Source: Alphaproteobacteria bacterium
GTDB taxonomy: Bacteria; Pseudomonadota; Alphaproteobacteria; UBA7985
Assembly (NCBI GenBank): GCA_965229645.1
Contig: OZ245893.1
Coordinates: 448,323-512,322 of the forward strand
Direction: 5' to 3'
DNA length: 64,000 nt
Shown here: piece after piece, positions 11,389-61,658 of the stretch
Layout of the letters: each line of letters opens with the position of its first letter
How positions within the stretch are numbered: position 1 is the stretch's first letter
Made by a program: the position numbers and the translations under genes
Notes under the pieces: generated by a model
Told to the model about the DNA's origin: nothing
What the model saw: only the letters and a program-made list of their open reading frames with translations
The model's database searches: none

Positions 11389-11647
11389 GGGCGGTCAGCT
11401 TAAACACATTGGTCGAACCCAACCTGAAGAGGGCGGCAAAGTATCTGCGACTCTTGGACAAGGTCTCGCATGTGGCAGAACCCACGTCGGACCGATTTGA
11501 GGAACATCGGCACCAACCAAAGCCATGCAATCGATTCCACACGGGCACGAATAGCGCGTCGAGCACGCCCACAAGACCGAATCGCCCTTGCGTCCTGGGG
11601 GGAAACAGGGTTTAGGCCCTGTTCATATCTGAACATAAGGAAGTTTC

Positions 11648-13018
11648 ATGACAGACATGTCTTGGTCACCGCAGAGTTGGCGGCAGCGGCCTATTGTGCA
11701 AGTGCCTGCCTACGACGATGCGGCGGGCCTGGCGGCGGCGGAGGCGGAGCTGAAGCGCTTACCGCCGCTGGTGTTTGCGGGCGAGGTGCGCAAGCTCAAA
11801 GCGGCCCTGGCCAAGGCAGCTCAGGGCGAGGCCTTTTTGCTGCAGGGCGGCGACTGCGCCGAGGCCTTTTCAGAGTTCCATGCCGACCATATTCGCGACA
11901 CCTTCAAATCGCTGTTGCAAATGTCCGTGGCGCTGACCTTCGGTGCCCATAAGCCAATTATTAAGGTCGGGCGTATGGCGGGCCAGTTTGCCAAGCCGCG
12001 CTCGGCCCCGACCGAAGTGATCGATGGGGTTGAATACCCGTCCTATCGCGGCGACATCATCAACGATATCAGCGCGACGCAGGCGGCGCGGCGCCCCGAC
12101 CCCCAGCGCATGGTCGCCGCCTATCACCAGGCGACGGCCACCTTGAACTTGTTGCGGGCCTTCGCCCAGGGGGGCTTTGCGGACTTGCGCAAAATTCACC
12201 GCTGGACCCTTGATTCCATGGCGGGCAGCCCCGCGACCGCGCGCTACCGTGACATGGCCGAGCGCATCGAGGAAGCCCTTGAGTTTATGCGCGCCTGCGG
12301 TGTCGATTCCGCCAAGACCGCGGCCTTGCGCGAGACGTCCTTCTACACCTCGCACGAGGCCTTGCTGCTCTGGTACGAGGAGGCCCTGACCCGCACCGAC
12401 TCCCTGACGAACAAGGTTTACGATCTATCGGCCCATATGCTCTGGATCGGCGACCGCACCCGTCAACCCGACCATGCCCATGTCGAGTTTTTGTCGGGGG
12501 TTGAAAACCCCATCGGTGTCAAAATCGGCCCCACGACCGATCCTAAGGACCTGGTTGGCCTGTTGACCAGGCTGAACCCTGAAAATGAACCAGGGCGGAT
12601 CACCTTGATCGTCCGCATGGGCCACGACCACGTTCTGGATCGCATGCCCCCGCTGGTGCAAGGTGTGAAAGACAGCGGGCAAGTCGTCGTCTGGTCGTGC
12701 GATCCCATGCACGGCAATACCCATAAGGCCTCGACGGGGTACAAGACCCGCGCCTTCGACCGCATTTTGACCGAAGTCGAGGGTTTTTTCGCGGTTCATC
12801 GTGATCTGGGCACGGTCCCAGGCGGCATTCATATCGAAATGACGGGCAAGGACGTGACCGAGTGCATCGGCGGCGCCCTAAATGTCACCGATGAGGATTT
12901 ATCGAGCCGCTACCATACGCACTGCGACCCGCGGCTGAACGCCAATCAATCGCTGGAGTTAGCGTTTTTGGTCGCCGAACTCCTGGAAAAAGACCGCAAA
13001 GAAAACGCGCGCAACTAG
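11648..13018 (+). CDS. 3-deoxy-7-phosphoheptulonate (DAHP) synthase, class II
   Basis: 456 aa, with a typical class II AroA(II) N-terminus and length, and an LLQGGDCAE motif. Confidence 0.9.
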
Positions 13019-27571: not shown

Positions 27572-27871
27572 GCGCCAGCGGCCATTCTTGTCAAACTCAG
27601 ATGGGTGGCGTTGCACCCATTTGGCGATCCGTGAGAACAAGCGTGCCTGATCGAGAGGTTTTTTGCGACCAAGCAAGACCTACGGGAAACCGAGCGACAT
27701 CTTATCATTCGATTTGGCGGCATGATGGTGGCGGGGACTGTTGTTGCGGTGCCTTGGTTGAACTTCTCTAGTCTAAGAGCGTACCTTGTTTCAGGGCTTA
27801 TATCACGGAAGGATGACCGAACCCACCTACCGACGAGCGTCCAAGCGCCAAACCCGAGCCTAGACGTCCGC

Positions 27872-27974
27872 ACCCGACGTCATCCAGCGCGGAGCGGAGC
27901 GAAGTCGCAGGATCCAGCACCGATCGTTTCGGGAAGTCCAGACGAAACGACCTTTGTGCGGTGCCAAACGACGG
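27872..27974. repeat. Interspersed repeat of about 100 bp, copy A
   Basis: It shares a CGTCATCCAGCGCGGAGCGGAGCGAAGTCGCAGGATCCAGCAC core and flanking similarity with 48965-49064. Confidence 0.4.
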
Positions 27975-28212
27975 CGGCATGATAGTGACGGGAATTATTC
28001 GTGTGGGGGCCTTATTTAGGCTTCTGTATCCCAAGGCCTCATCTTGTTTTAGGGCTATGACTAGCAACTCAACTTTACACAAAGTCCTTCAGAATAAGGA
28101 CCCGCAAGGACTTTGACGCACGAATCCCCGCGTCATACCAGCGGCAAGAATGAGCGACTCTTAATTTTAGGTATTCCCAAGGTGGTCCAATTCTGATTCG
28201 ATGCAGGGATCA

Positions 28213-28343
28213 TTGAATGAGACCTCAGCATAAATCAAAGAACCAAAAACTGACCGCAATATGTAGTATCCATTCGCCTCAATTAGCCCAATATATTTTA
28301 GCTGTGAGATTTGAAATCGAATTATGCTGAGGTCTCTGAATAG
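28213..28343. repeat. MITE-like 131-bp element with terminal inverted repeats
   Basis: TGAATGAGACCTCAGCATAA … TTATGCTGAGGTCTCTGAATA gives a perfect 15-bp inverted repeat, about 20 bp if two mismatches are allowed, bracketing 90 bp of AT-rich DNA directly upstream of IS630 orfA. Confidence 0.5.
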
Positions 28344-28352
28344 GAGTATGAT

Positions 28353-28865
28353 ATGAGTGCAGCGGTTCCCATTACTCGTCTTGACAAGAGTGCCGATGAT
28401 TTGCGGGCGCTGGCACGCAAGGCGAAGAACGGTCGAGTTGGCGGGCGATTGCTTTCCATAGCACTTGTTTTGGAAGGTGTGTCTCGTAAGTACGCAGCAG
28501 AAAGTAACGGCATGGACCGACAGTCGCTACGTGATTGGATCCATCGCTATAATGACGAAGGCGTTGGGGGTTTGGAAGATCGCAAAGGCGCAGGAGCCAA
28601 GCCCCGCATCAAAGGATCTGAGATGGACCAACTTGCAGCTTGGGTAAAGGCTGGTCCTGACGTTGAGCGCGATGGCGTTGTACGTTGGCGACGCAAAGAC
28701 TTAGCAGATCGGGTCAAACAAGAAATGAAGATCGAGGTGAGTGAGCGCACGGTGGGGAACTACTTGGACAAGCTGGGTTTTCGGCGTATGACAGTGCGGC
28801 CCGAACACCCCAAAACCGACAAAGAGGCCCAGGAGGCGCTAAAAAAAACTTCTCAAAGATCATAA
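28353..28865 (+). CDS. IS630-family transposase orfA (HTH/winged-helix part)
   Basis: 170 aa, and LSIALVLEGVSRKYAAESNGMDRQSLRDWIHRYNDEG is a helix-turn-helix. Confidence 0.8.
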   Translation: MSAAVPITRLDKSADDLRALARKAKNGRVGGRLLSIALVLEGVSRKYAAESNGMDRQSLRDWIHRYNDEGVGGLEDRKGAGAKPRIKGSEMDQLAAWVKAGPDVERDGVVRWRRKDLADRVKQEMKIEVSERTVGNYLDKLGFRRMTVRPEHPKTDKEAQEALKKTSQRS

Positions 28866-28873
28866 GGGATATT

Positions 28874-29416
28874 TTGCCTGACTACGCCCGCGAAAAAACC
28901 CTTGAGGTTTGGTTTCAGGATGAGGCGCGCGTAGGTCAGAAGGGCACAGTGACGCGTATTTGGGCGCCTCAGGGCACTCGCCCGCGTGCGCCGCGTGATA
29001 CACGTTATCAATGGAGCTATATCTTCGGGGCTGCCTGTCCCGAACGGGGTGTCGCCGCGGGGCTGGTCTTGCCTTATGTGAACACCGAGGCGATGAACTT
29101 GCACTTAGCGGAAATCTCCAAAACGGTTGCTACTGGTGCGCATGCGATCCTTGTGCTTGATTGCGCAGGTTGGCATCTGGCTAACAAACTAGAGATACCC
29201 CAGAATATCACGCTCCTAAAATTGCCGCCCTACTCGCCAGAGCTCAACCCTATGGAAAACGTCTGGCAATATCTGCGAGCAAACAAACTCGCACTATCGG
29301 TATTCGACACATACGAGGAAATTCTTCAAAAGTGCGCTGAGGCATGGAACTTCTTTGCCAATGACCCAAGGCGCATAATGTCGGTGACTAAACGCGATTG
29401 GGCAACGGTCATTTAA
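28874..29416 (+). CDS. IS630-family transposase orfB (DDE domain)
   Basis: WFQDEARVGQKGT…LVLDCAGWH…YSPELNPMENVW is an IS630/Tc1-like DDE region. Confidence 0.8.
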   Translation: MPDYAREKTLEVWFQDEARVGQKGTVTRIWAPQGTRPRAPRDTRYQWSYIFGAACPERGVAAGLVLPYVNTEAMNLHLAEISKTVATGAHAILVLDCAGWHLANKLEIPQNITLLKLPPYSPELNPMENVWQYLRANKLALSVFDTYEEILQKCAEAWNFFANDPRRIMSVTKRDWATVI

Positions 29417-29698
29417 TTTTTCCGTTGGTATGAGTGGATCACTGGGATCAAGGGTCACCTCGAAGGGTAGTTTTCGCGTTCGCACTATTTGGCGATAGAG
29501 CATGGAGATGACTTGCGACGGCTTAAGGCCCAACTCGGCTATCACCGCATCGCCTTGTTCCTTGAGATCGGCATCGATGCGCGAACTAACGCGCGCTTCT
29601 TGGGGCACGGCAGTAGTCTTTATGGGTTAGAGGCAATATCAATCGTTTGTACGCCAAACGTCACCCAAATCAAGACATCTTTTCAGGGCAATCGCACT

Positions 29699-30799
29699 TC
29701 AAAATCCTTGAATGAGTGTCTTTAAGAACTCGTTGCTCCATCCCGCGCGTTTGAACTTGACGCGATTTGAGGACTTGTCGTTGTTAGCCTTTATGATGTT
29801 CAAAGCAATGCGCCGTAAGGCAGCAAAGTTTGCAGGTGCGTTGCCCTTTCTCGCACGATGGAAGTCCTCGTTCATCACGACATCTAGGGACCAATGTAAA
29901 CTATTTTCAATCTGCCAATGACCACGGATTAGATTGGCAGCCTCCTGAGCGGTGCTCTGCTTTGACATAAGATAAGTCCGCTCTTCTTGGCTAACTTTCC
30001 CATCAACTTCACGCTTATACAACACATGGACGAAAGCAGAAAGGTGGGGCCAATCATGGGTTTGTGTCACATAATCTGGGACCTCATAAACTCTATAGCG
30101 GCGCTCCTCAATACGGCCATGGTCAGCATCCGTGGAACTGTACTCATTCGCCCAAATCGTTTGTGGGTCTGCAATAAAGGTCTGAATATCGTTCATCAAC
30201 CCCTTCTGGTTGGCCTTGAGTTGTATGCAATACTCTGCACCTTGAGCGGCGATCAGTTCACAGGTCTCGCGTTGGCAGTGCAGGGCGTCGGCGGTAAGAG
30301 TGATACCACGAATATCAAGCATCTGGATCAACTCACGCAGCGCTAAAATCTCACTGCCTGCCTTAGCGCTTTGAGTAATACCAAGACTTAACCGCGCCCC
30401 ATGGGCAAACGCTGTGACCAGGTTAAGGTTTGACTTCTTGGCAGCTTTATCAAAGCTCCCACGCAACTCCTTACCATCAATAGCAATGGCCTTTTGCTTT
30501 TCATCAGTGTTTGCAAAATCAGCTTGAAACTTTTCAAAAAACGCCTGAAAACTGTCTGGCTTCATCAACTGAAACAGGCGTGAAAATGCGTCGTGACTGG
30601 GTAAACCCAGAGGAAGTTCCAGAAACTCGCGCAAAAAATCCTCCTTGCTGCGAGCAAAATGTTCCATGTCCACTGCCGTTTCACCCCCACATAGGGCGCA
30701 CAAAAGGCTTATCGTCATCAAGTCGCAGAACTTGTGACGTGGGGCATTGCTCGTGCGAGGATCATCTAACTCGTTGAAATAATTGACTAGTAAGGGCAT
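29699..30799 (-). CDS. ISAs1-family transposase (H-repeat-associated type)
   Basis: The N-terminal FNELDDPR motif and 366-aa length are typical of ISAs1. Confidence 0.8.
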   Translation of the reverse strand: MPLLVNYFNELDDPRTSNAPRHKFCDLMTISLLCALCGGETAVDMEHFARSKEDFLREFLELPLGLPSHDAFSRLFQLMKPDSFQAFFEKFQADFANTDEKQKAIAIDGKELRGSFDKAAKKSNLNLVTAFAHGARLSLGITQSAKAGSEILALRELIQMLDIRGITLTADALHCQRETCELIAAQGAEYCIQLKANQKGLMNDIQTFIADPQTIWANEYSSTDADHGRIEERRYRVYEVPDYVTQTHDWPHLSAFVHVLYKREVDGKVSQEERTYLMSKQSTAQEAANLIRGHWQIENSLHWSLDVVMNEDFHRARKGNAPANFAALRRIALNIIKANNDKSSNRVKFKRAGWSNEFLKTLIQGF

Positions 30800-30885
30800 G
30801 TGTCGGCTCCATCTCGTGATGGAGACCGCCGAGTCCCTTTAGAACAAATTGTCAACTCTCAAGTGCGATTCCCCTGGACATCTTT

Positions 30886-31020
30886 TTCACCCGTGGAGAA
30901 GTGAATTTCAGCGCCGACCTCATTGATTGCTCTGCGATCTGTGCCCGCAAAAGCGTCGCGCACGAGCAGGTCGCCGAGGGCGCAGTAAGTGTGTTCGTTG
31001 GCCAGTTTGGCGCGGGTGTC
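30886..31020 (-). pseudogene. Diverged fragment of a glycerate kinase 3' end (last 45 or so codons), copy C
   Basis: The minus-strand translation MTLKADTRAKLANEHTYCALGDLLVRDAFAGT aligns to the C-terminus of the intact kinase at 40134 (MTLNAETRAQLANNDAYPALQTLGGLIVRGATGT). Confidence 0.55.
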
Positions 31021-31107
31021 GGCCTTGAGGGTCATCTTCTTGAAGGCGGAACGTAAAGCGCCAACGCGGCTTTGCTCAGAATCTATTTGGCGAGGCGCTG
31101 ATCTCAG

Positions 31108-31389
31108 CTAACTGACAGCCTGATGGATGATTGATTTTATCAGCGTTTGGTAGGGCACGCCGTCGCGAAACGCCTGCGCCTTCACACGTGCAAGGTCGCT
31201 ATGGGCGATGCGGATCGAAATTTTCTCGCTTCCTTCATTGAGCCTGTTGCGCGCCGCTTCCTGCATTTGGGCTTTGAGTTCAGGGGTGAGAAGGCTCTCC
31301 CTGGGCACATGGGCGTCGGATTCAAGGGCCTCTACCAACTCTCGCTCCTCCTCATCGAGGGTGTTCTCTACATAGGGGTCTTTTTTCAT
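31108..31389 (-). CDS. brnA: BrnA antitoxin (RHH-type)
   Basis: 93 aa. It overlaps brnT by 4 bp (ATGA) and has a typical BrnA C-terminal ribbon-helix-helix. Confidence 0.75.
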   Translation of the reverse strand: MKKDPYVENTLDEEERELVEALESDAHVPRESLLTPELKAQMQEAARNRLNEGSEKISIRIAHSDLARVKAQAFRDGVPYQTLIKSIIHQAVS

Positions 31390-31679
31390 GAGGCGTCCTT
31401 CTTCAAGTAAAAGGCCGTTTCGTTACGGCTGGGAAATACGGTTTTGAGAAACCAGGTACCGTCATCCTCCATCACGAAAGGAACGACGTAGGCGTAGTTT
31501 TCGATGTTGAGGATAGCGAGGCGCTGATGGGCACTTGTTGGGTGAGGTCGCACGTCAAGGATTCGACCATCAGCAATCGCGACGACGCAGTCGGCAAAAG
31601 TCACGCCATTACGAGAGGTTTCCGCTTGAAGTTTCTTCTCCTTTTCACTGCTCCAGCGGAACTTTTGCATGTCTTCCAT
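31386..31679 (-). CDS. brnT: BrnT toxin (DUF497 ribonuclease)
   Basis: 97 aa, with DUF497-like motifs (WSSEKEKKLQAE and TFADCV). Confidence 0.8.
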   Translation of the reverse strand: MEDMQKFRWSSEKEKKLQAETSRNGVTFADCVVAIADGRILDVRPHPTSAHQRLAILNIENYAYVVPFVMEDDGTWFLKTVFPSRNETAFYLKKDAS

Positions 31680-31745
31680 TGTATGGACAAACGAGTCGTT
31701 GTCAAAGGAATTTCAAGAAATGGGTTCAGATTGAGGCGGGTCACT

Positions 31746-32115
31746 CAACCTCACCCCCGCACGAAAATCTGTAGGTCCGCCACGTTGGTTCCCGTTGCGC
31801 CGCGCACGATGAGGCCGCCGAGGGCTTTTCGGGCAGGGTAGGCGTTGTTGTTGGTCAGTTGGGCACGGGTGTCAGCAGTGAGGTCATGGTATGATCGACT
31901 AGGTCGCCCGCAGCGTCGTTGGGGCCGTCGATGCCAGCGGTGCTGCCGCTCAAGAAGGCTCAGGGGTCTGGCAGATCCTCTAGGCAGGTCAGGACATGGG
32001 GGGCGAGATCCTGACTAAGGCCGTCCATGCCCGTGCCGCGCAAGATAAGGGTGGTTTCGCCGCCTCAGACCAGCGTGGGCGGGTCGGTGCTGCGGATATG
32101 ATCGGCGATTTGGCC
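31746..32115 (-). pseudogene. Decayed copy of the glycerate kinase 3' end (about 120 codons), copy B
   Basis: It is about 80% identical to 40134-40500 and contains frameshifts and an in-frame stop. Confidence 0.75.
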
Positions 32116-32213
32116 GTTGGTAGTACTTGCGCGCAACTCCCTTTGTGAGCAAGCGGGCAACGGCTCGTCGTCCTCTGGACTCTGCGGGGCCATTCCCTTG
32201 GCGTGAATAGATT

Positions 32214-34001
32214 GTGGATTTTGTTCCAGTTACTCCCTATTCGGAATCTATGCACCTGAAGGATCATAGATGGTATGGCTTTTGGACCATGGGCTCAATC
32301 CCGCACGCGCATGATTTGGGTGCGCTAAGGTTCGCCGATCTTTGCAAGCCTGCCGCCGATTGGCCCCATGGCGACGAGGCTGCAGAGGATCCAAGACGCC
32401 AAGAACGACCGAGTTTTAGACAGGTCGCCCCGTGGCTGCCTGGTCAAATGGACAAAACCCTTCTTGCCGATCCCCAGCTCGCGGCCACGCCCCTATTTGG
32501 TACCTTAAAACCTCAATCGGTTGCGGGAGATATGTTGCCAGAAATGAGGGCGATTTTGGGGGGGAACAAGCCAGATACCTGCAAAGTCTATGAACTCAGC
32601 AGCAAGACCATTGCTTTGCTCAACAGGGGCAGAATTTACCGTCCAACTGTGGGGGAAGACGATCGAGTTACCTATGCCTTGGGCTTCAAGCTTTCTAGGG
32701 CCGCTCACTACAGGCTGTTTGGCGACGCCTCTTCGCCCAACCCTTGGCAAGTTTTGAGTAAGAGGAACTGGCAAATCGTCCAAGAACGCCAACGGCTTGA
32801 CGAGGTGCGGGTTCAAAATCACGAAAATTTGCCAAGGCCTTCCACGGTTATTCCTTTGCAAATCCATCGGCTCGTCGTCTGGCACTTTGCTGAGGGCCGC
32901 CTCATTGCCGTCCCCGAGATCGGCATCGCGGACGATGGAGACGAGGGCCACGCATACCCGTTCGACCTTGCGTGGGAATTGGCAGATGGACTGTCGCGCT
33001 TAGGCGAACTTGTGTGGCTTGGGTATGGCGCAGAACAAAGCGGCGTCGCCTATGCTGAGGGCCAAGATCTTGTTCCAATGTGGATTGAGACTGGCGAGCT
33101 AAGTCTCGGCAAAATTCTGTCCCGCCTTTTGCTAGGTGAGTATGCAGTCTATCAACGTGATCGCCGCACATTTGGCTATAGCTATGCCCGTCTTAAAGAT
33201 ACGAATACAAAGGGGCAGCAAAGCGAACTAAGGCTTGCCGCAGTCCGTGCAGCCCTAAGCCTCACATCCGACTACGATGTGGCCGACCCTGTGCCGTTTG
33301 CTGGGATTGCGCAACCGTTTCAAAACATGGTTCATGCCGCTGGGTTGGAAGGGGCCTGTACGCTGGTTGCCGATCACTCGGACGGACGCAACTTGAGCTT
33401 TCTCGACGACTTTCGCACCAATAGGATCGAACAGGAGTATCGTCTTTTGTTGGTTCTGGCAATTTATCAACGTTATGAAGGGCTTCGTTTGTTGCGGAAA
33501 ATCAGTAAGGGGGTTGAGGGGGAAAAGCGTGATATCCACCAGCGCTTGGCCGAGTTGGACGCGCTCTATAACCAGGTTGCAAACTTGCAAGCCCGCTATC
33601 GCGATCATCAACTGAGCGCGGTGGGTACGCAGTTACTGTTCAACCGTCTTGTCCGAACCCAGTTGGGCCTGGACGAGATCGAGGTCCAACTCAACCAAGA
33701 CATGAGGCTGGTCTTTGAGCGGGAACAAGCCGCCGCTGCCGCCGAAAATGCCCGCGAAGACGCGAAAATGATGCGTGCGCAAGGCAAAATGCAAGCCTGG
33801 GCCAAATGGTTCGGCGCTTTGAGCGCAGGCTTTCTTGCCTTTGTTACAACGCTGCAGATTGGGACTTTGACCGATCAACTCCCCTGGTTGCCCAGGGATG
33901 AGTGGCTTATCCTCCTTGCGGTCGGGGTAGCTCTGTTCGCGGCCTTTGCAGCTTATGTAGCGGGACATGGACTCACGAAACGTGCCCCTGACGTTTCTTA
34001 G
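32214..34001 (+). CDS. Hypothetical 595-aa protein with a central coiled-coil region and two C-terminal TM helices. It is the only unassigned cargo gene of the Cas13a island.
   Basis: The ORF has a GTG start at 32214 (an alternative ATG is at 32250). It is lower in GC than the genome. The C-terminus WAKWFGALSAGFLAFVTTLQIG…WLILLAVGVALFAAFAAYVAG forms two TM helices. It ends 70 bp before the terminal repeat of array 1. Confidence 0.6.
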   Translation: MDFVPVTPYSESMHLKDHRWYGFWTMGSIPHAHDLGALRFADLCKPAADWPHGDEAAEDPRRQERPSFRQVAPWLPGQMDKTLLADPQLAATPLFGTLKPQSVAGDMLPEMRAILGGNKPDTCKVYELSSKTIALLNRGRIYRPTVGEDDRVTYALGFKLSRAAHYRLFGDASSPNPWQVLSKRNWQIVQERQRLDEVRVQNHENLPRPSTVIPLQIHRLVVWHFAEGRLIAVPEIGIADDGDEGHAYPFDLAWELADGLSRLGELVWLGYGAEQSGVAYAEGQDLVPMWIETGELSLGKILSRLLLGEYAVYQRDRRTFGYSYARLKDTNTKGQQSELRLAAVRAALSLTSDYDVADPVPFAGIAQPFQNMVHAAGLEGACTLVADHSDGRNLSFLDDFRTNRIEQEYRLLLVLAIYQRYEGLRLLRKISKGVEGEKRDIHQRLAELDALYNQVANLQARYRDHQLSAVGTQLLFNRLVRTQLGLDEIEVQLNQDMRLVFEREQAAAAAENAREDAKMMRAQGKMQAWAKWFGALSAGFLAFVTTLQIGTLTDQLPWLPRDEWLILLAVGVALFAAFAAYVAGHGLTKRAPDVS

Positions 34002-34071: not shown

Positions 34072-35427
34072 GAAGGGGACGGTTTTCAAATCGCCAGGGT
34101 TGGGACCGTCGCCTGGGGTGAATCACTGCTCGAGGAGGGTGCAGGCGGCTTTCAAATAGCCGTGGTTGGGACCGGCTGTTGCTTCCATGACACCGTGGCA
34201 CTGGGTGCAGGCGGCTTTCAAATAGCCGTGGTTGGGACCGTCTGCGGGCACGGGCTCCCAGATCATCGAGGTGCAGGCGGCTTTCAAATAGCCGTGGTTG
34301 GGACCCGCAGACGGTTCGCTGTACGACGTCTACCGGGTGCAGGCGGCTTTCAAATAGCCGTGGTTGGGACCACAAGCACTTTCGATCCGAAATACAAACC
34401 AGGTGCAGGCGGCTTTCAAATAGCCGTGGTTGGGACCTATCCCAACGGGGATTATACGGGCGACTTTGGTGCAGGCGGCTTTCAAATAGCCGTGGTTGGG
34501 ACCGGTGGACCGTGAGGACAAGGGTAAGCAGACGGTGCAGGCGGCTTTCAAATAGCCGTGGTTGGGACCGAAATCCCAGGCGGTGATACAAATTCCGAAG
34601 GTGCAGGCGGCTTTCAAATAGCCGTGGTTGGGACCGCGGATCCTGTACGTTCACGATGTTGCCCCGGTGCAGGCGGCTTTCAAATAGCCGTGGTTGGGAC
34701 CGATCAACGGGCAAAACGTTTTTACGGTTGGGGTGCAGGCGGCTTTCAAATAGCCGTGGTTGGGACTGGCATCTTTCCTTGCTCATCTAGCTTCCTGGGT
34801 GCAGGCGGCTTTCAAATAGCCGTGGTTGGGACCTCAACTTCAAGCAATACTCTGGATTTGCAGGGTGCAGGCGGCTTTCAAATAGCCGTGGTTGGGACCC
34901 GGCTTCTGGTGTAATAGGAATTTTGCTCGGGTGCAGGCGGCTTTCAAATAGCCGTGGTTGGGACCCGATGCTGTAGGCGCCCTTCTGGTCGAGTAGGTGC
35001 AGGCGGCTTTCAAATAGCCGTGGTTGGGACCCCAAGGCTGCGTCGGCGTTCATGCCGAACAGGTGCAGGCGGCTTTCAAATAGCCGTGGTTGGGACCTTG
35101 AACGCGATCCAGATCAAACGCCGATGGGGTGCAGGCGGCTTTCAAATAGCCGTGGTTGGGACCGGGTCGCTCGGTCATGGCCAAGCAGCGCCAGGTGCAG
35201 GCGGCTTTCAAATAGCCGTGGTTGGGACCGCCCGAAGGCTCGCCGAGACGGGCAGGGTTGGTGCAGGCGGCTTTCAAATAGCCGTGGTTGGGACCCATTG
35301 TACCACATGCGGTACACGCCTGGGAGGTGCAGGCGGCTTTCAAATAGCCGTGGTTGGGACCGACTGTGACGGGCGACGTTGCAACCGACTTGGTGCAGGC
35401 GGCTTTCAAATAGCCGTGGTTGGGACC
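34072..35427 (-). CRISPR. CRISPR array 1 with 21 repeats of 36 nt (one degenerate at 34072-34107) and 20 spacers of uniform 30 nt
   Basis: The plus-strand repeat is GGTGCAGGCGGCTTTCAAATAGCCGTGGTTGGGACC, with an exact 66-bp period from 34138 to 35427. Repeat 10 ends in T. The degenerate repeat is at the cas13a-distal end. Confidence 0.95.
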
Positions 35428-35515: not shown

Positions 35516-38500
35516 TCAGTCATTTTTTCCTTGTCCATAAGCAAGTTTCTCTAGGGTTTTCAAGAACGTAGTGGAAACGCGGTCCACCTCGAACTTTGCC
35601 TCCGTAAAGGAAGCAAGATGCCAGACGGGAACTGCGCTCAGCCCACCTTCTTGAGGTTTATGGAGGCGGTGCTCATCGCAAGTTTCCCATCTGACTTCAA
35701 TACCTTCATCGAGCATGAGATCCTTGATTGCCTTTGATACGGCGTTGCGCAATTTGCGATCATAGGTCATGAGCCTGCGGACGTCGTTGATAAGGCTGGT
35801 GAGATTGAGCCCCGGCTTCAAGATTGTAAAGTGCGCGAAGGCGTTGCGAATTTTGGCCTGTTCCTCGCCAAAATACTTGTTGTAAAGAGATTGATTGTCT
35901 TGCGTGAGGTTTTCCAACACAAGTGGGCCGCGTTTGAAGCTGGGTCGGTCGCTCAATTTCTTGGCGAATTCATACAGATCCTGGTTTCCATGGCCCTGTT
36001 GACGTTGATAGAGCGCTAAGGCGACGAAAAGCGCATCCCGCTCCCACGTTGCGCTAAAATCGATGAGGCGAGAGACCAGTCGCATGAGCAAAATATGAAG
36101 GCGTGTCATGTCGCTGAGCCGCACCCGTTCCGCTAAGAACTTAAATTTGTTTAGCGCCTCCGTGATCTTTTGATACTCGGCGGTTTCTTCTGCATCCAGG
36201 TGATTTTTCTTCGACTTAACGATTTTATTGTGAAGATCGTGCTTCTTCTTCTCAAAACCCGCAACACGAGGTAAGTCACGCAAGTAGCTGGACACCTCAG
36301 CTTCGGAAATTTTGCTGGTCGCGTGCAGGTTTTGTAGGAGGGGCAAGGTGCCAAAGCGCAAAATTTGTCGTAAGCCAGTTTTGAGACCTTCAACGCGTCG
36401 TTCCTCTGCGGCCTTCGCACCAACGGACAAATCTTGCTGCGGGGCAAAGACCCGCTGGAAATGGCCCCGATCTTCAAAAAGGTCCGCCACGTCGGCCAAA
36501 CCGCCCGACGTTTCAAGGATGTTGACCATGTGCGCGCCAGCCATTTTTCCGTAGAGCAGACAAAGATCGCGCAGTTTGCGAGCGTAGTCGCTGTGCTCAT
36601 CGGGACGCGTCTCTTTGGTTTCCAGAACGCGGGCCTTGACGAACTGAGTCATGAGTCGGCTGGTATCCTGCACTGGCACCAAGTAGAGAAACACGTAAAA
36701 CAAGGCCTCCCAATCTTCGAGATCTCGATCTAGACCAGCGTCTTCAAAGGCGGGGGGATGCGCGACATATGTTCGTTTCTCCAGTCGGCCGCGCGCGAGC
36801 CATTGGAAGGGTTTGCCTTGCGGCGACTCTAGGAATTGGGCGAAGAGCAGGGCGAAGAAATCACATTTCAAGTCCTCGATCGCGTGAGAGTTCTTTCGTG
36901 CTTTCTTTCTGTCGGCCACGTAGGTTCGATTCTGCCGCGTTTCGGCGGCGACAACTTGGGTCAGTTGATCGAACCATTCTTGGAGATTCTTGCCAGGATG
37001 CAGTTGCGGGACTTGGGTCAAGCGCGACTCAACTAGGTCCGCGAAGGGCCCCGTGTTGTTCATGGCCTTGGCACGCGCGGTCGCCTCTCTAATTACTTGG
37101 TCGGCCGCATCGGCGAACTTTGACGTGCCGTTGTTTTCTATCAGCCAAACCCGAAAGGCAGAATTGTAGATCAGTTGCAAAGCACCGAAATGACAGGTCG
37201 CCGCTTCGTCATTTTTTGTTACCGTACTTATCTTATCGGGGAACTGCGATCGGGTGTCGTCTTTTGGGAAATGGCCTTTAAGGTTGTGATTGCGATGCAG
37301 GATCCGCCCAAATCGAGGGATCAGCAAATCGCGATCGGGCTCGAGCAGTGAGGCCTTGAACAGGTCCTCAACCTCTCTATGGCCAGGAACAAACCACGGC
37401 ACCTTTAGGGCCATGATCACATCCTTAGATCGCTGCTTCAGGCCCCGCATGTCGGTTTCTAGCCGTGCGCGCGCGAAGGCGAGCAAGTCAGAAAAGCCCT
37501 CGACGTCGTTCCAATTCCCCGCAACTTCAAGTTTGTGAAGGCTGGCCTTGAGCTTCGCGGCGTCGCCAAAATGAAAGACTTGAGTGCGCAATCGCGCCGC
37601 CACCCTCAGTAGTGCGAACAACCGTTGCTTTGCCAGTTGCTCATCTTCGGTCGCAAAGACCGAGTCATCCCCGTGGGAGTCACCGCCAGCCTCGTTCAAA
37701 GGATCGCCAAAGACAAGTTTGGCCATGCGGTTATAGTGCGGCAAACCCACGAAACACTTCGTGGTCGCCTTTATTCCGACCTCATTCGAAAGAATGTCGT
37801 CGTCCACATAAGCCGTTTCAGGGCCGAAAATTTCACCTTTTGGATCGGCCCAGTATTTTAAGGTGCGGCTAGCTTGCGAAATGGCGGTGCGCCAGAATCG
37901 TTCGAAGGCTTCGGAGTGCTTAAGCGCCGTGAGCGCAGACGACGTTTTTAGGGCCTGCATGCAGGCGGGCATCTGCTCTGCCGAGTGCGCGCGTCGGGCC
38001 GCGTGGTAGATATTACGGCCTTCGCGGATCAAGGCGGTCATGGTGGCGTTGCCTTGCTTGCGGTTTAGGGCACGCACCAGCGACGCCATGTCGGCGGGCA
38101 AGCGATAGGAAAGCGGTGTGCGCGTGTTTTGGAGGTGCCGAGTGGACTTGCGTACCTTGTTGGCGTAGAATTTTTTGACCTGGTTGTGCAGGTCAAGCAA
38201 GTCGCGATCGGACGAAGTGAACTTTTGGCCTGGCTTTTTTAAGGGCGCAAAGTGGTCCGATAAGATCTTCCCAAAAAGTGTCGTGCCAACAGGCTCGTTC
38301 TGACTTTCGCGCCTGCGCACCTCTGAAAAAATATGGGCGGCTACGTTGGCGTACGTCCCTTGCTGATAGGCCTTAAGGCGCGGCTCGGACAGCTCCAAGC
38401 TCGGGCGCTCTGTGTTTTGGGCCGCGGTCCAAAGGTTGGAGGTCCTAATGCTATTGGCCCGGTGCCAAATCAATCCGTGACCAGATTTTTTTTGACCCGA

Positions 38501-39016
38501 GGCCGAGACTTTCGCGGTGAACAGGTGGGCGTCGATGTTTTGGGCAATCTGCTTGTAGTTGGGGTTTCCTTGCGCGTCTTGCGCCCAGAGGGCTGTCTTG
38601 AGGCGTCCATAAATTCGATCAGGCTGAGCGCCCGCAGGGGCCCTGTCCCTTAAGGCCCTCAAGTCCTCCTCGGCCGTTGGAAAGTCCGCGTAGGGATGCA
38701 GCTTCGCCCGCCAAAATTCGAACTTGGCGCCGACGTTCTTACGGCTGATAAGTTCCCACACGGCCTGGCCCAACTGCTCGCGCCGTTCGTAGCGCTCAAC
38801 AGACATGAGGCGCAGGTTCTTTTCTTTGGTGAGGACCTTGTCCAGAATTCCGATATATTGCCGCATCAGAATTTTGGCCTCTTTCGATATGAGGGTATGG
38901 AGGTCAGCGTCTCGGTTCTGCTCAGACACAGTGGGCCGCGTTACCTCGACGCGACGCTCCAATTTTGAACCGTCCCAATGCGTTTTACTGTTGCCGATTG
39001 ATGAGATGATTTTCAT
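35516..39016 (-). CDS. cas13a: Cas13a (C2c2), the type VI-A CRISPR RNA-guided RNase
   Basis: 1166 aa, flanked on both sides by CRISPR arrays. It has two R-x4-H HEPN motifs, RTQVFH at aa 476-481 and RNAFAH at aa 1057-1062, a placement that matches Cas13a. It is lower in GC than the flanking DNA. Confidence 0.85.
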   Translation of the reverse strand: MKIISSIGNSKTHWDGSKLERRVEVTRPTVSEQNRDADLHTLISKEAKILMRQYIGILDKVLTKEKNLRLMSVERYERREQLGQAVWELISRKNVGAKFEFWRAKLHPYADFPTAEEDLRALRDRAPAGAQPDRIYGRLKTALWAQDAQGNPNYKQIAQNIDAHLFTAKVSASGQKKSGHGLIWHRANSIRTSNLWTAAQNTERPSLELSEPRLKAYQQGTYANVAAHIFSEVRRRESQNEPVGTTLFGKILSDHFAPLKKPGQKFTSSDRDLLDLHNQVKKFYANKVRKSTRHLQNTRTPLSYRLPADMASLVRALNRKQGNATMTALIREGRNIYHAARRAHSAEQMPACMQALKTSSALTALKHSEAFERFWRTAISQASRTLKYWADPKGEIFGPETAYVDDDILSNEVGIKATTKCFVGLPHYNRMAKLVFGDPLNEAGGDSHGDDSVFATEDEQLAKQRLFALLRVAARLRTQVFHFGDAAKLKASLHKLEVAGNWNDVEGFSDLLAFARARLETDMRGLKQRSKDVIMALKVPWFVPGHREVEDLFKASLLEPDRDLLIPRFGRILHRNHNLKGHFPKDDTRSQFPDKISTVTKNDEAATCHFGALQLIYNSAFRVWLIENNGTSKFADAADQVIREATARAKAMNNTGPFADLVESRLTQVPQLHPGKNLQEWFDQLTQVVAAETRQNRTYVADRKKARKNSHAIEDLKCDFFALLFAQFLESPQGKPFQWLARGRLEKRTYVAHPPAFEDAGLDRDLEDWEALFYVFLYLVPVQDTSRLMTQFVKARVLETKETRPDEHSDYARKLRDLCLLYGKMAGAHMVNILETSGGLADVADLFEDRGHFQRVFAPQQDLSVGAKAAEERRVEGLKTGLRQILRFGTLPLLQNLHATSKISEAEVSSYLRDLPRVAGFEKKKHDLHNKIVKSKKNHLDAEETAEYQKITEALNKFKFLAERVRLSDMTRLHILLMRLVSRLIDFSATWERDALFVALALYQRQQGHGNQDLYEFAKKLSDRPSFKRGPLVLENLTQDNQSLYNKYFGEEQAKIRNAFAHFTILKPGLNLTSLINDVRRLMTYDRKLRNAVSKAIKDLMLDEGIEVRWETCDEHRLHKPQEGGLSAVPVWHLASFTEAKFEVDRVSTTFLKTLEKLAYGQGKND

Positions 39017-39166
39017 GCCGAACCTCAGCCAAAGTACCTAAGTGCCAATTCACGGACGTTGCCTCGTGAACCTCAGGTCTTTGGGGTTAGAGAACCGCTG
39101 TTACAAAAACAAGGGCTTCGATAGAGTCTCAACGCACGAGTACGAGGGCCGTCGCAACGGGCTGCT

Positions 39167-39894
39167 GGGTGTTACTGTAGCCGATGTTTGAACCGAGGTC
39201 GTCCTCGAGTCATCCCAAAGTTGGGGGTGTTGGCGGCTGTCACTGTAGCCGATGTTTTAACCCACGGACAGCTGAAAGAAGGAGGTACCTATCAAGGGTT
39301 TTGGCGGCTGTCACTGTAGCCGATGTTTTAACCCACGGACAGCTGAAAGAAGGAGGTACCTATCAAGGGTTTTGGCGGCTGTCACTGTAGCCGATGTTTT
39401 AACCCAGACCCCGAAAACGTCAATGTAGTTGAAGTCGGTGTTGGCGGCTGTCACTGTAGCCGATGTTTTAACCTCCTACAAAATTCCGGGGGGGAGTCTA
39501 ACTCTCACGGTGTTGGCGGCTGTCACTGTAGCCGATGTTTTAACCCAGTTCGATGGACTGGTGGGCGGATCCGCCAGGGTGTTGGCGGCTGTCACTGTAG
39601 CCGATGTTTTAACCGAAGGTTTTGTAGCCAGCTTTACCCCGTATAGTGGGTGTTGGCGGCTGTCACTGTAGCCGATGTTTTAACCGACGAGGAATACATC
39701 CTCGTCATGACACCCTGGTGTTGGCGGCTGTCACTGTAGCCGATGTTTTAACCAAAATAAGAAGGCTGACGTAAAAGTCAGACTTCGGTGTTGGCGGCTG
39801 TCACTGTAGCCGATGTTTTAACCTGGGCTACGGCTTGTTTGTGCCGCACAACGACGCGGTGTTGGCGGCTGTCACTGTAGCCGATGTTTTAACC
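39167..39894 (-). CRISPR. CRISPR array 2 with 11 repeats of 37 nt (one truncated terminal repeat and two G-to-T variants) and 10 spacers of 31-35 nt
   Basis: The plus-strand repeat is GGTGTTGGCGGCTGTCACTGTAGCCGATGTTTTAACC. Repeats 2 and 3 read GGTTTTGG…. Spacers 1 and 2 are identical. The truncated repeat (39167-39194) lies next to cas13a. Confidence 0.95.
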
Positions 39895-40133: not shown

Positions 40134-41366
40134 TCACCCCCGCACAAAAATCTGCAGGTCCGCCACGTTGGTTCCCGTTGCGCCGCGTACGATGAGGCCG
40201 CCGAGGGTTTGGAGGGCGGGGTAGGCGTCGTTGTTGGCCAGTTGGGCGCGGGTTTCGGCGTTCAGGGTCATGGTATGATCGACCAAGCCGCCAGCGGCGT
40301 CGGTGGGGCCGTCGATGCCGTCGGTGCCGCCGCTTAGGAAGGCCCAGGGGCCTGGCAGGTTTTCTAGGTGGGTTATGACATGGAGCGCGAGCTCCTGATT
40401 GCGGCCGCCTTTGCCTGTGCCCTGCACGGTGACGGTGGTTTCGCCGCCCCAGAGCAGCGTGGGGGCAGGGGTGTTGCGGATGTCTTGGGCGATTTGGGCG
40501 GCGGCGGCTTGGACGTCGCCCGTAAGGGCCGCGTTCATGATCTTGGCCTGGCCTGCGCTGGCCATGGCGCGCAGGCTTTGGGCGTTGGAGCCGATCAAGG
40601 CGTTGTCGGCGGGCGGGAGTTCGGTTCGGTTCTTGGGCAGGCGCGGCGTCGCGGCGGTAAGCGCGTCTTGGACGGCGCGCGGCAGGCGCGGCCAGATCTG
40701 CGCCTTGTGTAAAGCGGTCACGGCGTCTTGAGCCGTGCCTAAGGGCGGCGTGGTGGGGCCGCTGGCGACGGCGCGCAGATCATCGCCGATGACGTCGGAG
40801 AGGATCAGCGCGCGCACCTGGGCGGGGGCGGCGAGGGCGCTGAGGCCGCCGCCCTTCAGCTGCGAGAGGTTTTGCCGAACCAAGTTGATGGCCTCAATCG
40901 GCATCCCAGCGGCCAGCATAAGATCGTTGGTGGCTTGCTTGTCGTCCAGGGTCAGGCCAGGGAGCGGGCAGGGCAGGAGCGCGGAGCCCCCACCCGAGAG
41001 CAGCAGCACGATCTCTTCGTCCGCGCCCGCGCGCTGGGCAAGGTCCTTGACCTGCTGCGCCGCCGCTAGGCCCGCCGCGTCGGGGCGGGGATGGCCCGCG
41101 CCCAGGACCTGCGCGCCCGCGACGGGCTGGACGTTTCCGTAGGAGGTCACGGCCAGGGCCGATCTTGGGGTTACAAACTCAAGGGCCGCGCGCATCATGG
41201 CGCAGGCGGCCTTGCCGACGGCGATCAGGTGCGGGTGGGCGGCGGGTGGGTTGGCCTTAAGCGCGCGGCGAACGGCAGCGGCGGGGTCGGCGGCGTCGAT
41301 GCCGACCTGGAACAGGTCTAAGACGCAGGATCTTAAATCCTTCATTTCGCTAGGGAGGTCAGGCAC
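40134..41366 (-). CDS. Glycerate kinase (MOFRL/GckA-TtuD family)
   Basis: 410 aa, with MOFRL-family motifs (GKAACAMM…LLSGGGSALL). The start may instead be the MKDL methionine at 41345. Confidence 0.85.
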   Translation of the reverse strand: MPDLPSEMKDLRSCVLDLFQVGIDAADPAAAVRRALKANPPAAHPHLIAVGKAACAMMRAALEFVTPRSALAVTSYGNVQPVAGAQVLGAGHPRPDAAGLAAAQQVKDLAQRAGADEEIVLLLSGGGSALLPCPLPGLTLDDKQATNDLMLAAGMPIEAINLVRQNLSQLKGGGLSALAAPAQVRALILSDVIGDDLRAVASGPTTPPLGTAQDAVTALHKAQIWPRLPRAVQDALTAATPRLPKNRTELPPADNALIGSNAQSLRAMASAGQAKIMNAALTGDVQAAAAQIAQDIRNTPAPTLLWGGETTVTVQGTGKGGRNQELALHVITHLENLPGPWAFLSGGTDGIDGPTDAAGGLVDHTMTLNAETRAQLANNDAYPALQTLGGLIVRGATGTNVADLQIFVRG

Positions 41367-61180: not shown

Positions 61181-61220
61181 GCCTTGCTTTGACCACCGAG
61201 AGTGCCTAGGGCAGCCCCGC

Positions 61221-61311
61221 TGGTGAGATGGCCGAGTGGCTTAAGGCGCACGCCTGGAACGCGTGTATAGGGGAAACTCTATCGTGGGTTCGAATCCCAC
61301 TCTCACCGCCA
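61221..61311 (+). tRNA. tRNA-Ser (GGA)
   Basis: GGTGAGA acceptor stem pairing with TCTCACC-G-CCA, a long variable arm, a TΨC arm GGTTCGAATCC and the anticodon loop CTGGAAC. Confidence 0.85.
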
Positions 61312-61422
61312 TCGAGGTAAAGCGCCCATTCAAGCGCGAAGTACCCTTTATGGGGGTGACGGGTCAGAGACGTGAGGACACCCAGTTCGGTGCAAATCAG
61401 GAGGGGAACCAAGAACGATAGT

Positions 61423-61647
61423 ATGAGTCTTGGCGCTGACCTATTTGTGGGTACCGCGTGGACTTTTGCCAGTCTGAATTTTGATGGCCAGCTCGATTCT
61501 CCTTTCATTAAGGAATCTGCTTCCAAAGTTTTGGAAATCCCATTCGGCAGTGTGGGGCAGATAAAGTTGGTCAACATATTCTGCTGGCTGAATGAGTATG
61601 CAGTATCTGGCGACGGAACAGAAAACCAACTAAAAACAACGCCTTAG
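61423..61647 (+). CDS. Small hypothetical protein at the start of the tRNA-Ser island
   Basis: A 74-aa ORF ending 11 bp before the GmrSD start. It has no motif, so confidence is low. Confidence 0.3.
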   Translation: MSLGADLFVGTAWTFASLNFDGQLDSPFIKESASKVLEIPFGSVGQIKLVNIFCWLNEYAVSGDGTENQLKTTP

Positions 61648-61658
61648 GAGAAATAGTT

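Follow-up and report, generated by a model that had tools for sequence, protein, structure and literature searches.

A divergent CorA-like membrane protein family found beside cas13a in type VI-A CRISPR loci

The cas13a island and its membrane protein gene

The window (the whole 64-kb stretch of DNA that was analyzed) carries an island with cas13a, two CRISPR arrays, and a gene for a CorA-like membrane protein. These features were annotated as follows.

32250 to 34001, plus strand: gene for the CorA-like membrane protein (P0001, 583 amino acids), from the open reading frame (ORF), an identical database entry, the family alignment, and dN/dS
32250 to 33380, plus strand: predicted cytoplasmic part, residues 1 to 377, from the AlphaFold model, invariant alignment columns, and Foldseek alignments
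33411 to 33812, plus strand: residues 388 to about 521, predicted to form a helical bundle and a long stalk helix that continues into TM1, from the secondary structure of the model
33813 to 33872, plus strand: predicted first transmembrane helix (TM1), approximately residues 522 to 541 of P0001, from hydropathy, a GMN search, and alignments
33897 to 33971, plus strand: predicted second transmembrane helix (TM2), approximately residues 550 to 574 of P0001, with a short basic tail behind it at the C terminus, from hydropathy and the model
34072 to 35427, minus strand: CRISPR array 1, with 21 repeats of 36 nt (GGTCCCAACCACGGCTATTTGAAAGCCGCCTGCACC on the minus strand) and 30-nt spacers
35516 to 39016, minus strand: cas13a, 1166 amino acids (PADLOC, 2.8e-135)
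39159 to 39894, minus strand: CRISPR array 2, with a related 37-nt repeat in 10 full copies and one degenerate copy

Both HEPN R-x4-H motifs of the predicted Cas13a were intact (RTQVFH at 475 and RNAFAH at 1057) and lined up with their counterparts in seven other Cas13a proteins; identity to the Cas13a proteins of other loci was only 24 to 28%. The repeat of array 1 was homologous to the repeats of VI-A/RT1 loci. With a Cas13a containing two HEPN motifs and an array of approximately 36-nt stem-loop repeats, the locus was classified as type VI-A. In a relative locus (L001), cas13a has been lost and array 2 is still present. Degenerate repeats were located at the low-coordinate ends of both arrays, which fits transcription from the minus strand together with cas13a, and the membrane protein gene is therefore convergent with the array. 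The degenerate terminal repeat of array 1 begins at position 34072 and faces the gene, 70 bp after the stop codon ending at 34001, so both the distance and the orientation given in an earlier reading of the sequence alone (the sequence-only reading) were borne out.

The GC contents of the membrane protein gene (0.546) and cas13a (0.542) were low compared to those of the flanks (0.625 to 0.635), as were their GC3 values (0.58 and 0.64, respectively, versus 0.83 in a neighboring host gene). The base composition of the gene is foreign, like that of cas13a, in agreement with the low GC content that had been described as common to the gene and the island. The remaining island genes were two IS elements and a BrnT/BrnA-like pair, leaving this gene, as first noted, the sole cargo gene that is neither Cas, mobile, nor toxin-antitoxin related. 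Comparison with the copy in L001 gave a dN/dS of 0.20, with flanking host genes at 0.11 to 0.27; the window copy is under purifying selection. A scan for promoters and terminators around the gene was uninformative.

The ORF listing places the reading frame at 32214 to 34001 on the plus strand (595 amino acids from a GTG start), and the identical protein in databases contains 583 amino acids from an ATG start at 32250. The ATG at 32250 is predicted to be the likelier start because it retains the conserved N-terminal beta-strand motif of the family (xDHRxxxF), a strand that would be removed by a start at the ATG at 32289, the position annotated in the relative P0002. The ORF at 32250 to 34001 is a genuine gene; the 595-amino-acid ORF originally described was thus real, with 583 amino acids as its more likely length.

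Hydropathy revealed two hydrophobic C-terminal helices (approximately residues 534 to 553 and 562 to 586 in the 595-amino-acid numbering), with basic residues before TM1 and after TM2 and an acidic loop between the helices, a charge distribution that fits both termini lying in the cytoplasm (N-in, C-in). The cytoplasmic part of the AlphaFold model consisted of an N-terminal domain of approximately 190 residues and an alpha/beta domain that matched the cytoplasmic domain of CorA (Foldseek). Long helices followed at residues 388 to 542 of P0001, the last running directly into TM1, and model helices at residues 474 to 542 and 551 to 577 covered both transmembrane segments. The long coiled coil and two-helix membrane anchor of the sequence-only reading are both present as helices, and the model recasts them as a putative CorA-like stalk and pore hairpin.

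A rare family with a CorA-like fold

A phmmer search against 1.84 billion representative proteins produced 130 matches at an E value of ≤1e-3, all full-length and 500 to 600 amino acids long. As judged by sequence searches, these constitute a rare family of about 130 sparse clusters, all unnamed and covered by no domain database. Named alphaproteobacterial sources were Thalassospira, Cohaesibacter, Hyphomicrobiales, and an Alphaproteobacteria metagenome-assembled genome, and the family extended to other Proteobacteria. Alignments revealed motifs conserved from the N terminus through TM2, including N-terminal motifs specific to the family (LARQYTSDY, DFxNVxH, EGA, and MHN). Most family-invariant residues were in the cytoplasmic part (R155, E243, W256, R306, F357, E367, and G368). 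The window protein deviated at 11 of 37 highly conserved positions, including R336, Y338, H406, H461, and N462, and because of these losses, its mode of action may differ from that of the other family members.

The protein had no significant match in Pfam, NCBIfam, PADLOC, or PHROGs, and no PADLOC cas model, including those for Csx27 and Csx28, matched it at an E value of ≤0.1. Several weak matches were rejected as composition matches confined to the transmembrane hairpin, including SLATT_4 (NCBIfam; 10.8 bits and E value of 0.33 versus a cutoff of 55), TIGR01620, and, in some members, holin, DUF2207_C, and DUF2975. Matches of the family profiles to PDB sequences were attributed to Lpp coiled-coil noise and to an artifact of tandem RecA fusion constructs, and the “PLMP_corA-like” entry in the supplement of Altae-Tran et al. 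was found to be a different protein, acidic and repeat rich. A word-indexed protein search with either the single sequence or the family alignment recovered one truncated relative and otherwise just the query protein, and the same search with the window Cas13a returned nothing besides that Cas13a. No matches to P0001, P0008, or the window Cas13a were found among PLSDB plasmids (tblastn), and no family relative was found in a scan of viral contigs. A search for related loci with a narrow family alignment produced one genome locus and two short metagenome loci.

The Foldseek search with a predicted structure that had been suggested as a check identified CorA-family channels as the only best PDB matches of two independent models. 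The AlphaFold models of P0001 (m82adc1e48ba6; pLDDT of 85.1, pTM of 0.83) and P0008 (pLDDT of 91.9, pTM of 0.88) were compared to the PDB with Foldseek. The top 35 matches for P0001 were all CorA, and the top 50 for P0008 were CorA-family chains (CorA and CmaX), with E values of approximately 5e-4, probabilities of up to 1.00, and alignments of 300 to 350 columns, equivalent to full-length CorA. The predicted topology was also that of CorA, with an alpha/beta cytoplasmic domain and a stalk helix continuous with TM1.

Sequence similarity to CorA was found in part of the family. Four distant members (P0085, P0119, P0121, and P0122) have the motif [FYL]GMN[FL] where TM1 ends, and positions of the C-terminal Pfam CorA profile matched P0122 (21.3 bits, E value of 1.9e-4) and P0121 (16 bits, E value of 7.7e-3). 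No family member reached the gathering score of Pfam CorA (PF01544, 27 bits), none of the 40 members of alignment A1 matched it at an E value of ≤0.1, and searches of PDB sequences with the family profiles found no CorA. In the alignment and the GMN search, GMN was absent from the window protein, in which the corresponding stretch is TTLQIG, and from the Cas13a-linked members. The clade with GMN was homologous to the Cas13a-linked clade (hhalign probability of 100%, E value of 2.5e-46, 429 columns). The family is accordingly placed in the CorA channel superfamily, with the window protein as a divergent member that has lost GMN.

Genomic neighborhoods of the family genes

Genomic context was readable for 11 independent loci out of the approximately 130 clusters, and Cas13a or a VI-A-type repeat adjoined the family gene in 9 of them (the window, L002, L003, L006-8, L009, L010, L011, L012, and L016). 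The gene neighborhood check on co-occurrence with cas13a was therefore positive, with linked copies in widely separated lineages. The usual order was cas13a, array, RT-cas1, cas2, array, and family gene. The Cas13a-adjacent relatives were only 23 to 30% identical to the window protein, and the Cas13a proteins of the linked loci were only 24 to 40% identical to one another; the divergence of the family protein was correlated with that of its Cas13a (Pearson 0.71, Spearman 0.57). All nine linked members fell within one half of the family tree.

Homologs were not found to be widespread outside CRISPR or defense settings, as the two loci without Cas13a nearby had defense-like rather than housekeeping surroundings. 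One of these members (P0034) adjoined a PDC-S05-like gene, and the other (P0137) was in an operon with Metallophos and SHOCT genes, beside GmrSD and an AAA_15/21 ATPase. A Metallophos gene was adjacent in 2 of the 11 loci (L003 and L015), with none in the window, and PD-(D/E)xK genes were seen beside some family members. No cas10 or cmr genes were present in the gene tables of the examined loci, and no NrN, DEDD nuclease, or SAM-AMP lyase was seen beside the family genes there.

Three explanations other than a partnership with Cas13a were weighed against these neighborhoods. The protein could be a self-contained abortive-infection or defense protein that travels with Cas13a on shared mobile islands and has no functional coupling to it. 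The two members without Cas13a nearby fit such a protein, as do the integrases, IS elements, and TraG-like genes that flank several loci. Chance colocation on islands would yield varied neighbors, but 9 of the 11 loci share one very rare neighbor at a fixed position just past the array or cas2. The link also spans Cas13a lineages as divergent as those above, with correlated divergence, and the linked members are confined to one half of the tree, all of which makes this explanation rather improbable.

A role in the adaptation module (RT-Cas1 and Cas2), such as nucleic acid uptake or spacer acquisition instead of Cas13a interference, would fit the six loci in which the gene comes after RT-cas1, cas2, and the second array. 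However, no RT-Cas1 or Cas2 was found by tblastn in the 64 kb of the window, where the gene has been kept, nor beside the gene/cas13a pair in L016, where the kept gene directly faces cas13a, and some members are outside CRISPR loci. The link is therefore to the effector rather than to the adaptation module, and an adaptation role was considered very improbable. Passenger cargo of the island with no defense role, the alternative raised in the sequence-only reading, has the absence of annotation in its favor and nothing beyond; it is contradicted by the conserved synteny with Cas13a and the purifying selection and is scarcely credible. The candidate Cas13a-associated membrane factor put forward there is supported as an association by the linked loci and the correlated divergence. 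The family is best described as a conserved accessory of type VI-A loci, and the window protein is probably a previously unrecognized Cas13a helper.

Proposed role and comparison with known systems

Among RNA-targeting CRISPR effectors, Cas13a is the founding member, and it is in wide use as a tool; type VI-A has nonetheless been treated until now as having no dedicated accessory protein. The 2025 update of the CRISPR classification lists accessories only for other subtypes and states that more probably await discovery (PMC12669027), and the present family goes unmentioned in the published accounts of VI-A/RT1 loci (PMC6753606). Type III-B and VI-B/RT systems have known CorA-like partners; no report of a membrane accessory was found for VI-A in the literature that could be searched, consistent with the initial statement that no partner had been established for this subtype.

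The protein is likely to act either as a channel or pore tied to Cas13a activation or as a divalent-cation modulator. A CorA-superfamily VI-A accessory forming a channel that is gated by Cas13a activation, depolarizes the membrane, and reinforces growth arrest was judged somewhat better than an even bet. Several copies of the protein, probably five, would assemble like CorA into a channel in the inner membrane. The cytoplasmic domain would sense activated Cas13a, through either direct contact or a product of Cas13a RNase activity, and opening of the channel would allow ion flow and membrane depolarization, which would strengthen the Cas13a-imposed growth arrest of infected cells. Csx28 acts in this way with Cas13b, and CorA is believed to do so in type III-B systems. 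The absence of the Mg2+-selectivity motif GMN, lost from the Cas13a-linked branch, points to a pore of lower selectivity rather than to a housekeeping magnesium channel. To our knowledge, Cas13a makes no second messenger, and the activating signal is therefore speculative.

Alternatively, the protein could be a divalent-cation transporter that tunes Cas13a up or down through the intracellular Mg2+ or other metal available to the metal-dependent HEPN RNase, acting as a regulator and not as an effector of death or dormancy. The CorA-like fold (Foldseek), the retention of GMN by some family members, and an acidic residue that most Cas13a-linked members conserve in the alignment at the outer end of TM1 are consistent with transport. 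Transport of divalent ions (Zn2+, Ni2+, and Cd2+) and modulation of Cas13b have been described for the CorA of VI-B/RT-Cas1 loci (NAR 2024, Toro laboratory, PMC11662929); in this one experimentally tested type VI CorA case, Cas13b interference was lowered, which counts against the proposed reinforcing role. However, neither the window protein nor the rest of the Cas13a-linked half of the family has the GMN selectivity filter, and the cytoplasmic part is approximately 200 residues larger than that of transport CorA and has its own invariant polar residues, which appears more sensor-like. The transporter explanation was considered unlikely, with an appreciable chance of being correct.

A specific form of the gated channel was given a small chance. 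In this form, a ligand-gated CorA-type channel would sense a small product of Cas13a, such as RNA fragments with a 2′,3′-cyclic phosphate end or a specific cleaved tRNA, and the Metallophos or PD-(D/E)xK neighbors would be an off-switch, like NrN for type III-B CorA. If this is correct, RNA cutting in a class 2 CRISPR system would be connected to membrane depolarization by something akin to a second messenger.

A conserved membrane partner would imply that membrane effects may belong to natural Cas13a immunity, as they do with Csx28 in Cas13b systems and with CorA in type III systems. In addition, the CorA scaffold would have been recruited at least three times to RNA-sensing CRISPR systems or inherited across them, and the family would provide a concrete candidate for enforcing or tuning Cas13a-induced dormancy.

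Csx27 and Csx28 are of small size and fold differently; Csx28 assembles as an octamer, contains a divergent HEPN domain, and forms a pore that depolarizes the membrane once Cas13b is activated. Like the present protein, they are membrane proteins encoded beside a Cas13 effector, and the Csx28 mechanism is the analogy for the proposed role. The CorA-like protein described here has three times their size and is paired with Cas13a rather than Cas13b. Csx27 and Csx28, the precedents first named for this gene, hold as membrane partners of Cas13, but the nearest parallels are the CRISPR-associated CorA proteins from type III-B and VI-B/RT loci.

The ligand of the type III-B CorA is SAM-AMP, and the protein requires its membrane domain (PMC10600005, Chi et al. 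2023). [quoted passage not shown] They are thought to be gated pores and are often paired with a phosphodiesterase, as Metallophos genes are with the present family in 2 of 11 loci. The partner there is the Cas10 complex and here Cas13a; with no Cas10 in the examined family loci, there is no known source of SAM-AMP. The window protein also differs in having no GMN, in being missed by CorA sequence models, and in its own N-terminal motifs.

The CorA of VI-B1/RT-Cas1 loci (“Cas13b + CorA,” UAS-21 in Altae-Tran et al. 2023) is likewise a CorA-type protein with two transmembrane helices tied to a Cas13 effector, in loci with RT-Cas1 and Cas2. Those proteins are recognizable CorA homologs from the type III CorA-1 group, occur in Bacteroidetes, and pair with Cas13b, whereas the partner of the present family is Cas13a, its hosts are Alphaproteobacteria and other Proteobacteria, and Pfam does not recognize it.

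Canonical CorA/ZntB/Mrs2 proteins (PF01544) share with the predicted structure the cytoplasmic alpha/beta domain, long stalk, TM1, short periplasmic loop, TM2, and N-in/C-in topology. They are also the best fold matches in the PDB, and GMN is correctly placed in the four distant members. The present protein differs by approximately 200 extra N-terminal residues, sub-threshold sequence similarity, and defense rather than housekeeping contexts, and its Cas13a-linked branch differs by the absence of GMN. The location inside a CRISPR-cas locus is conserved, as it is for CRISPR-associated CorA effectors, but the subtype here is VI-A.

Gene, island and selection

The gene lies in the Cas13a island of the window, among the following features (window positions).

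27772-32117: block missing from the close genome L001, holding two IS elements (IS630-like and DDE_Tnp_1)
30953-31035 and 31746-32116: two partial extra copies of the DUF4147/MOFRL gene 3' end, 65-88% identical (compare 40134-40500)
31108-31679: BrnT/BrnA-like toxin-antitoxin pair
32214..34001, plus strand: ORF of the gene under study
34072..35427, minus strand (probable): CRISPR array 1
35516..39016, minus strand: cas13a
39159..39894, minus strand (probable): CRISPR array 2

The ORF had been described from the sequence alone as encoding 595 aa, the length obtained with a GTG start. The ORF is real, but its likeliest start is the ATG at 32250, from which the identical product in the public protein collection (P0001, 583 aa) begins; this start was adopted because it retains the first beta-strand with its xDHRxxxF motif, conserved across the family. 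Hydropathy analysis recovered the two C-terminal transmembrane (TM) helices of the earlier description; the pair is flanked on both sides by basic residues and joined by an acidic loop, which fits a predicted N-in, C-in hairpin. The stop codon ends at 34001, and the 70-bp gap between it and array 1, whose degenerate terminal repeat starts at 34072, was confirmed. Degenerate repeats occupy the low-coordinate end of both arrays, so that the arrays are probably read, like cas13a, on the minus strand; this makes the gene and array 1 convergent, as had been proposed. The lower GC content attributed to the island was also confirmed: base composition is foreign in both the gene and cas13a (GC, 0.546 and 0.542 versus 0.625-0.635 in the flanks; GC3, 0.58 and 0.64 versus 0.83 in a neighboring host gene). 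At the right end of the window (61000-64000), GC content drops from ~0.63 to 0.41, which suggests a further foreign segment unrelated to the Cas13a island.

Cas13a was identified by PADLOC (2.8e-135), with both HEPN motifs intact, and is short (1166 aa, versus 1330-1442 aa in RT-Cas1-linked loci). It is a deep, so far singleton lineage, since a word-indexed search of 5.8 billion proteins detected no relative and identity to Cas13a of the other loci was only 24-28%. Neither RT-Cas1 nor Cas2 was found within the window by tblastn. The first two full units of array 2 (39225-39366), 99% identical across all 71 nt and with the same spacer, are a duplicated repeat-spacer unit adjoining the degenerate terminal repeat.

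The insertion is shared by the L001 genome (~86% nucleotide identity), where it is flanked, as in the window, by FMN-dehydrogenase and DUF4147/MOFRL genes, and the island is therefore older than the split of the two species. There, an IS3-family element (11045-12288, within L001 9831-12840) has replaced array 1 and cas13a together with the 3' half of the gene, leaving array 2 and a 343-aa stump (P0002) that is 84% identical to the window protein; this island is a decayed copy of that in the window. Across the 335 shared codons the gene is maintained by purifying selection (dN/dS, 0.20; flanking host genes, 0.27 and 0.11). The block at 27772-32117 is a later addition, with the MOFRL 3'-end copies bracketing the BrnT/BrnA-like pair, and resembles a scar left by repeated insertion at a single hot spot.

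A protein family beside Cas13a

The window protein had no significant match in Pfam, PADLOC, PHROGs, or NCBIfam, and in the word-indexed search of 5.8 billion proteins it was matched only by itself and by the L001 stump. When 1.84 billion cluster representatives were searched exhaustively with phmmer, 130 proteins were found at E <= 1e-3 (35 of them at E <= 1e-10), nearly all of 500-600 aa and most aligning across the greater part of their length. Sources included Thalassospira, Cohaesibacter, a Hyphomicrobiales MAG, and Candidatus Contendobacter, and the relatives, where named, are called "hypothetical protein." Conserved motifs run the length of the alignment (LARQYTSDY, DFxNVxH, EGAAT, YLPxxxLNLH, and FRFxxVSxxSMHN, followed by the two-TM hairpin). 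None of 40 members had a convincing Pfam family, and the family profile had no match among PDB sequences.

Loci of relatives were picked by length of surrounding sequence or by peptide pattern, blind to gene content. Five relatives (P0006, P0007, P0008, P0013, and P0014; 27-30% identical to the window protein) lie in the single-strand order cas13a, array, RT-cas1, cas2, (array), family gene. The pattern scan also yielded L003, an Alphaproteobacteria MAG locus in which a P0038-like member is accompanied by Cas13a (PADLOC, 3.5e-102), RT-Cas1, and two arrays. The distant P0029 (locus L016; E 1e-13 to the window protein) faces Cas13a (1.2e-126) in the convergent layout of the window, with a solitary VI-A-type repeat between the two genes and no adaptation genes. 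The contig of P0003 opens with a VI-A-type repeat, and P0003 follows ~160 nt downstream. No cas gene was found near P0034, which adjoins a PDC-S05-like gene, or near P0137, which lies between Metallophos and SHOCT genes beside GmrSD and an AAA_15/21 ATPase.

Linkage to VI-A, the CRISPR subtype using Cas13a, was thus present at 9 of 11 informative loci, a pattern not due to chance because Cas13a is very rare. The Cas13a proteins of linked loci are only 24-40% identical to one another, which indicates old, separate lineages, and accessory divergence tracks Cas13a divergence (Pearson, 0.71; Spearman, 0.57; 21 non-independent pairs). In a rough neighbor-joining tree, all nine linked members fell in one half and both unlinked members in the other. 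Since the window and L016 lack RT-Cas1 and Cas2, linkage is to the effector and array rather than to the adaptation module. A conserved Cas13a-linked family is very likely, and the sequence-only reading of the protein as a candidate Cas13a-associated membrane factor gains support from these neighborhoods, the kind of evidence by which that reading had itself asked to be judged. The window protein is among the most divergent members: of 37 positions highly conserved in the family, it lacks 11 (R336, Y338, H406, H461, and N462 among them); given its outlier Cas13a as well, this pair may differ in detail from the others.

Several further features were observed at loci of relatives (locus positions).

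L006 9000-9537, L010 8255-8905, and L012 9677-10001: sites where the family gene follows a second array in RT-Cas1-type loci
L009 11817-14669: short TraG/VirD4-like ATPase, Phage_CP76-like protein, and Card1-like PD-(D/E)xK protein
L016 630-2610: TraG-like ATPase and CP76-like protein
L003 12904-13613: CP76-like and PD-(D/E)xK proteins
L010 973-5082: cas13a split into two ORFs (973-3402 and 3418-5082), apparently disrupted
L003 1813-3734: family gene in two overlapping ORFs with an unrelated stretch between, apparently disrupted
L002 2312-7111: 1599-aa helicase-nuclease (DUF4011, AAA_11, AAA_12, MTES_1575, and DUF3320) following the P0003 gene

In RT-Cas1-type loci the family gene starts just 65-140 bp past the second array on the strand of the cas genes, unlike the convergent gene of the window, and could be expressed there by read-through from that array. 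The TraG-like, CP76-like, and PD-(D/E)xK proteins recurring beside VI-A loci may be further accessories or parts of a carrier mobile element.

Probable relationship to CorA and proposed mechanism

The window protein was modeled with AlphaFold2 from a 40-sequence alignment. The model was confident (pLDDT, 85.1; pTM, 0.83) and comprised N-terminal and alpha/beta domains, a helical bundle, a ~70-residue helix running into TM1, and TM2. The sequence-only reading had left the protein unrecognized; when the predicted structure was compared to PDB with Foldseek, the best 35 matches were all CorA chains (E from 6e-4; probability up to 0.99), with alignments of ~320 columns spanning the whole CorA chain. 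Rigid-body scores were low (TM, 0.12-0.29), and the modeled topology is accordingly called CorA-like, close structural identity being unproven.

The last 110 residues of every family member were searched for G[MVI]N. The CorA signature GMN occurred exactly at the end of TM1 in four distant members (P0085, P0119, P0121, and P0122), as FGMNL, FGMNF, LGMNL, or YGMNF. Two of these matched positions 207-290 of the 292 in Pfam CorA, both under the curated threshold (P0122, E 1.9e-4; P0121, E 7.7e-3). Profile-profile comparison joined the GMN clade to the Cas13a-linked clade from the N terminus to TM1 (probability, 100%; E 2.5e-46; 429 columns). Through this homology and the signature of the GMN clade, the family likely constitutes a divergent branch of the CorA superfamily.

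The GMN signature is lost in the Cas13a-linked half of the family, including the branch of the window protein, in most members of which an acidic residue is conserved instead close to the outer end of TM1 (glutamine in the window protein). This loss speaks against a simple Mg2+ channel. Chief among the rival readings is a cation transporter with a modulatory role: the one CorA of a type VI system that has been tested moves divalent ions and reduces interference by Cas13b (PMC11662929). A pore effector is instead tentatively proposed, by analogy with Csx28 and Cas13b and with the type III-B CorA, which binds SAM-AMP and requires its TM domain (PMC10600005). The protein would assemble as an oligomeric channel whose cytoplasmic part would sense activated Cas13a; the channel would open and pass ions, and the flow would depolarize the cell, strengthening Cas13a-imposed dormancy. 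The analysis shows the CorA-like architecture, the membrane hairpin, conserved cytoplasmic polar residues, conserved Cas13a linkage, and purifying selection. The combined description of a Cas13a-linked pore effector of the CorA superfamily is slightly favored.

Candidate partners and comparison with known systems

Phosphoesterases of the Metallophos family, orthologous to each other (42% identical) and bearing PPP/ApaH-like motifs (GDVHG, GDLVDRG, and GNHD), directly adjoin the family gene at a Cas13a locus (L003, 3731-4468) and at a locus without CRISPR (L015, 3279-4040), and may be functional partners. At L009, the Card1-like PD-(D/E)xK protein (nuclease domain, without CARF) follows the family gene. 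These neighbors recall the obligate pairing of type III CorA with NrN, a DEDD nuclease, or a lyase and hint at a ligand-gated design. Most Cas13a-linked loci, the window included, have no such enzyme neighbor.

The gene is absent from both papers defining VI-A/RT-Cas1 systems (PMC6753606 and PMC11662929); the word "membrane" appears nowhere in the 2019 paper (PMC6753606), and the 2024 paper describes CorA for VI-B only (PMC11662929). The 2025 CRISPR classification update lists accessories for VI-B, II-C, VI-F, and V-A2, with more awaiting discovery (PMC12669027). Among the CRISPR-linked modules catalogued by Altae-Tran et al. are "Cas13b + CorA" and "PAP_phosphatase_CorA," and none pairs Cas13a with such a protein. 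The full-text literature searched, which covers few subscription journals so that an earlier mention is possible, contained nothing else on CorA or membrane accessories with Cas13a. CRISPR-associated CorA-type membrane proteins are already known; the apparent novelty is that a separate, unannotated family lacking GMN accompanies subtype VI-A.
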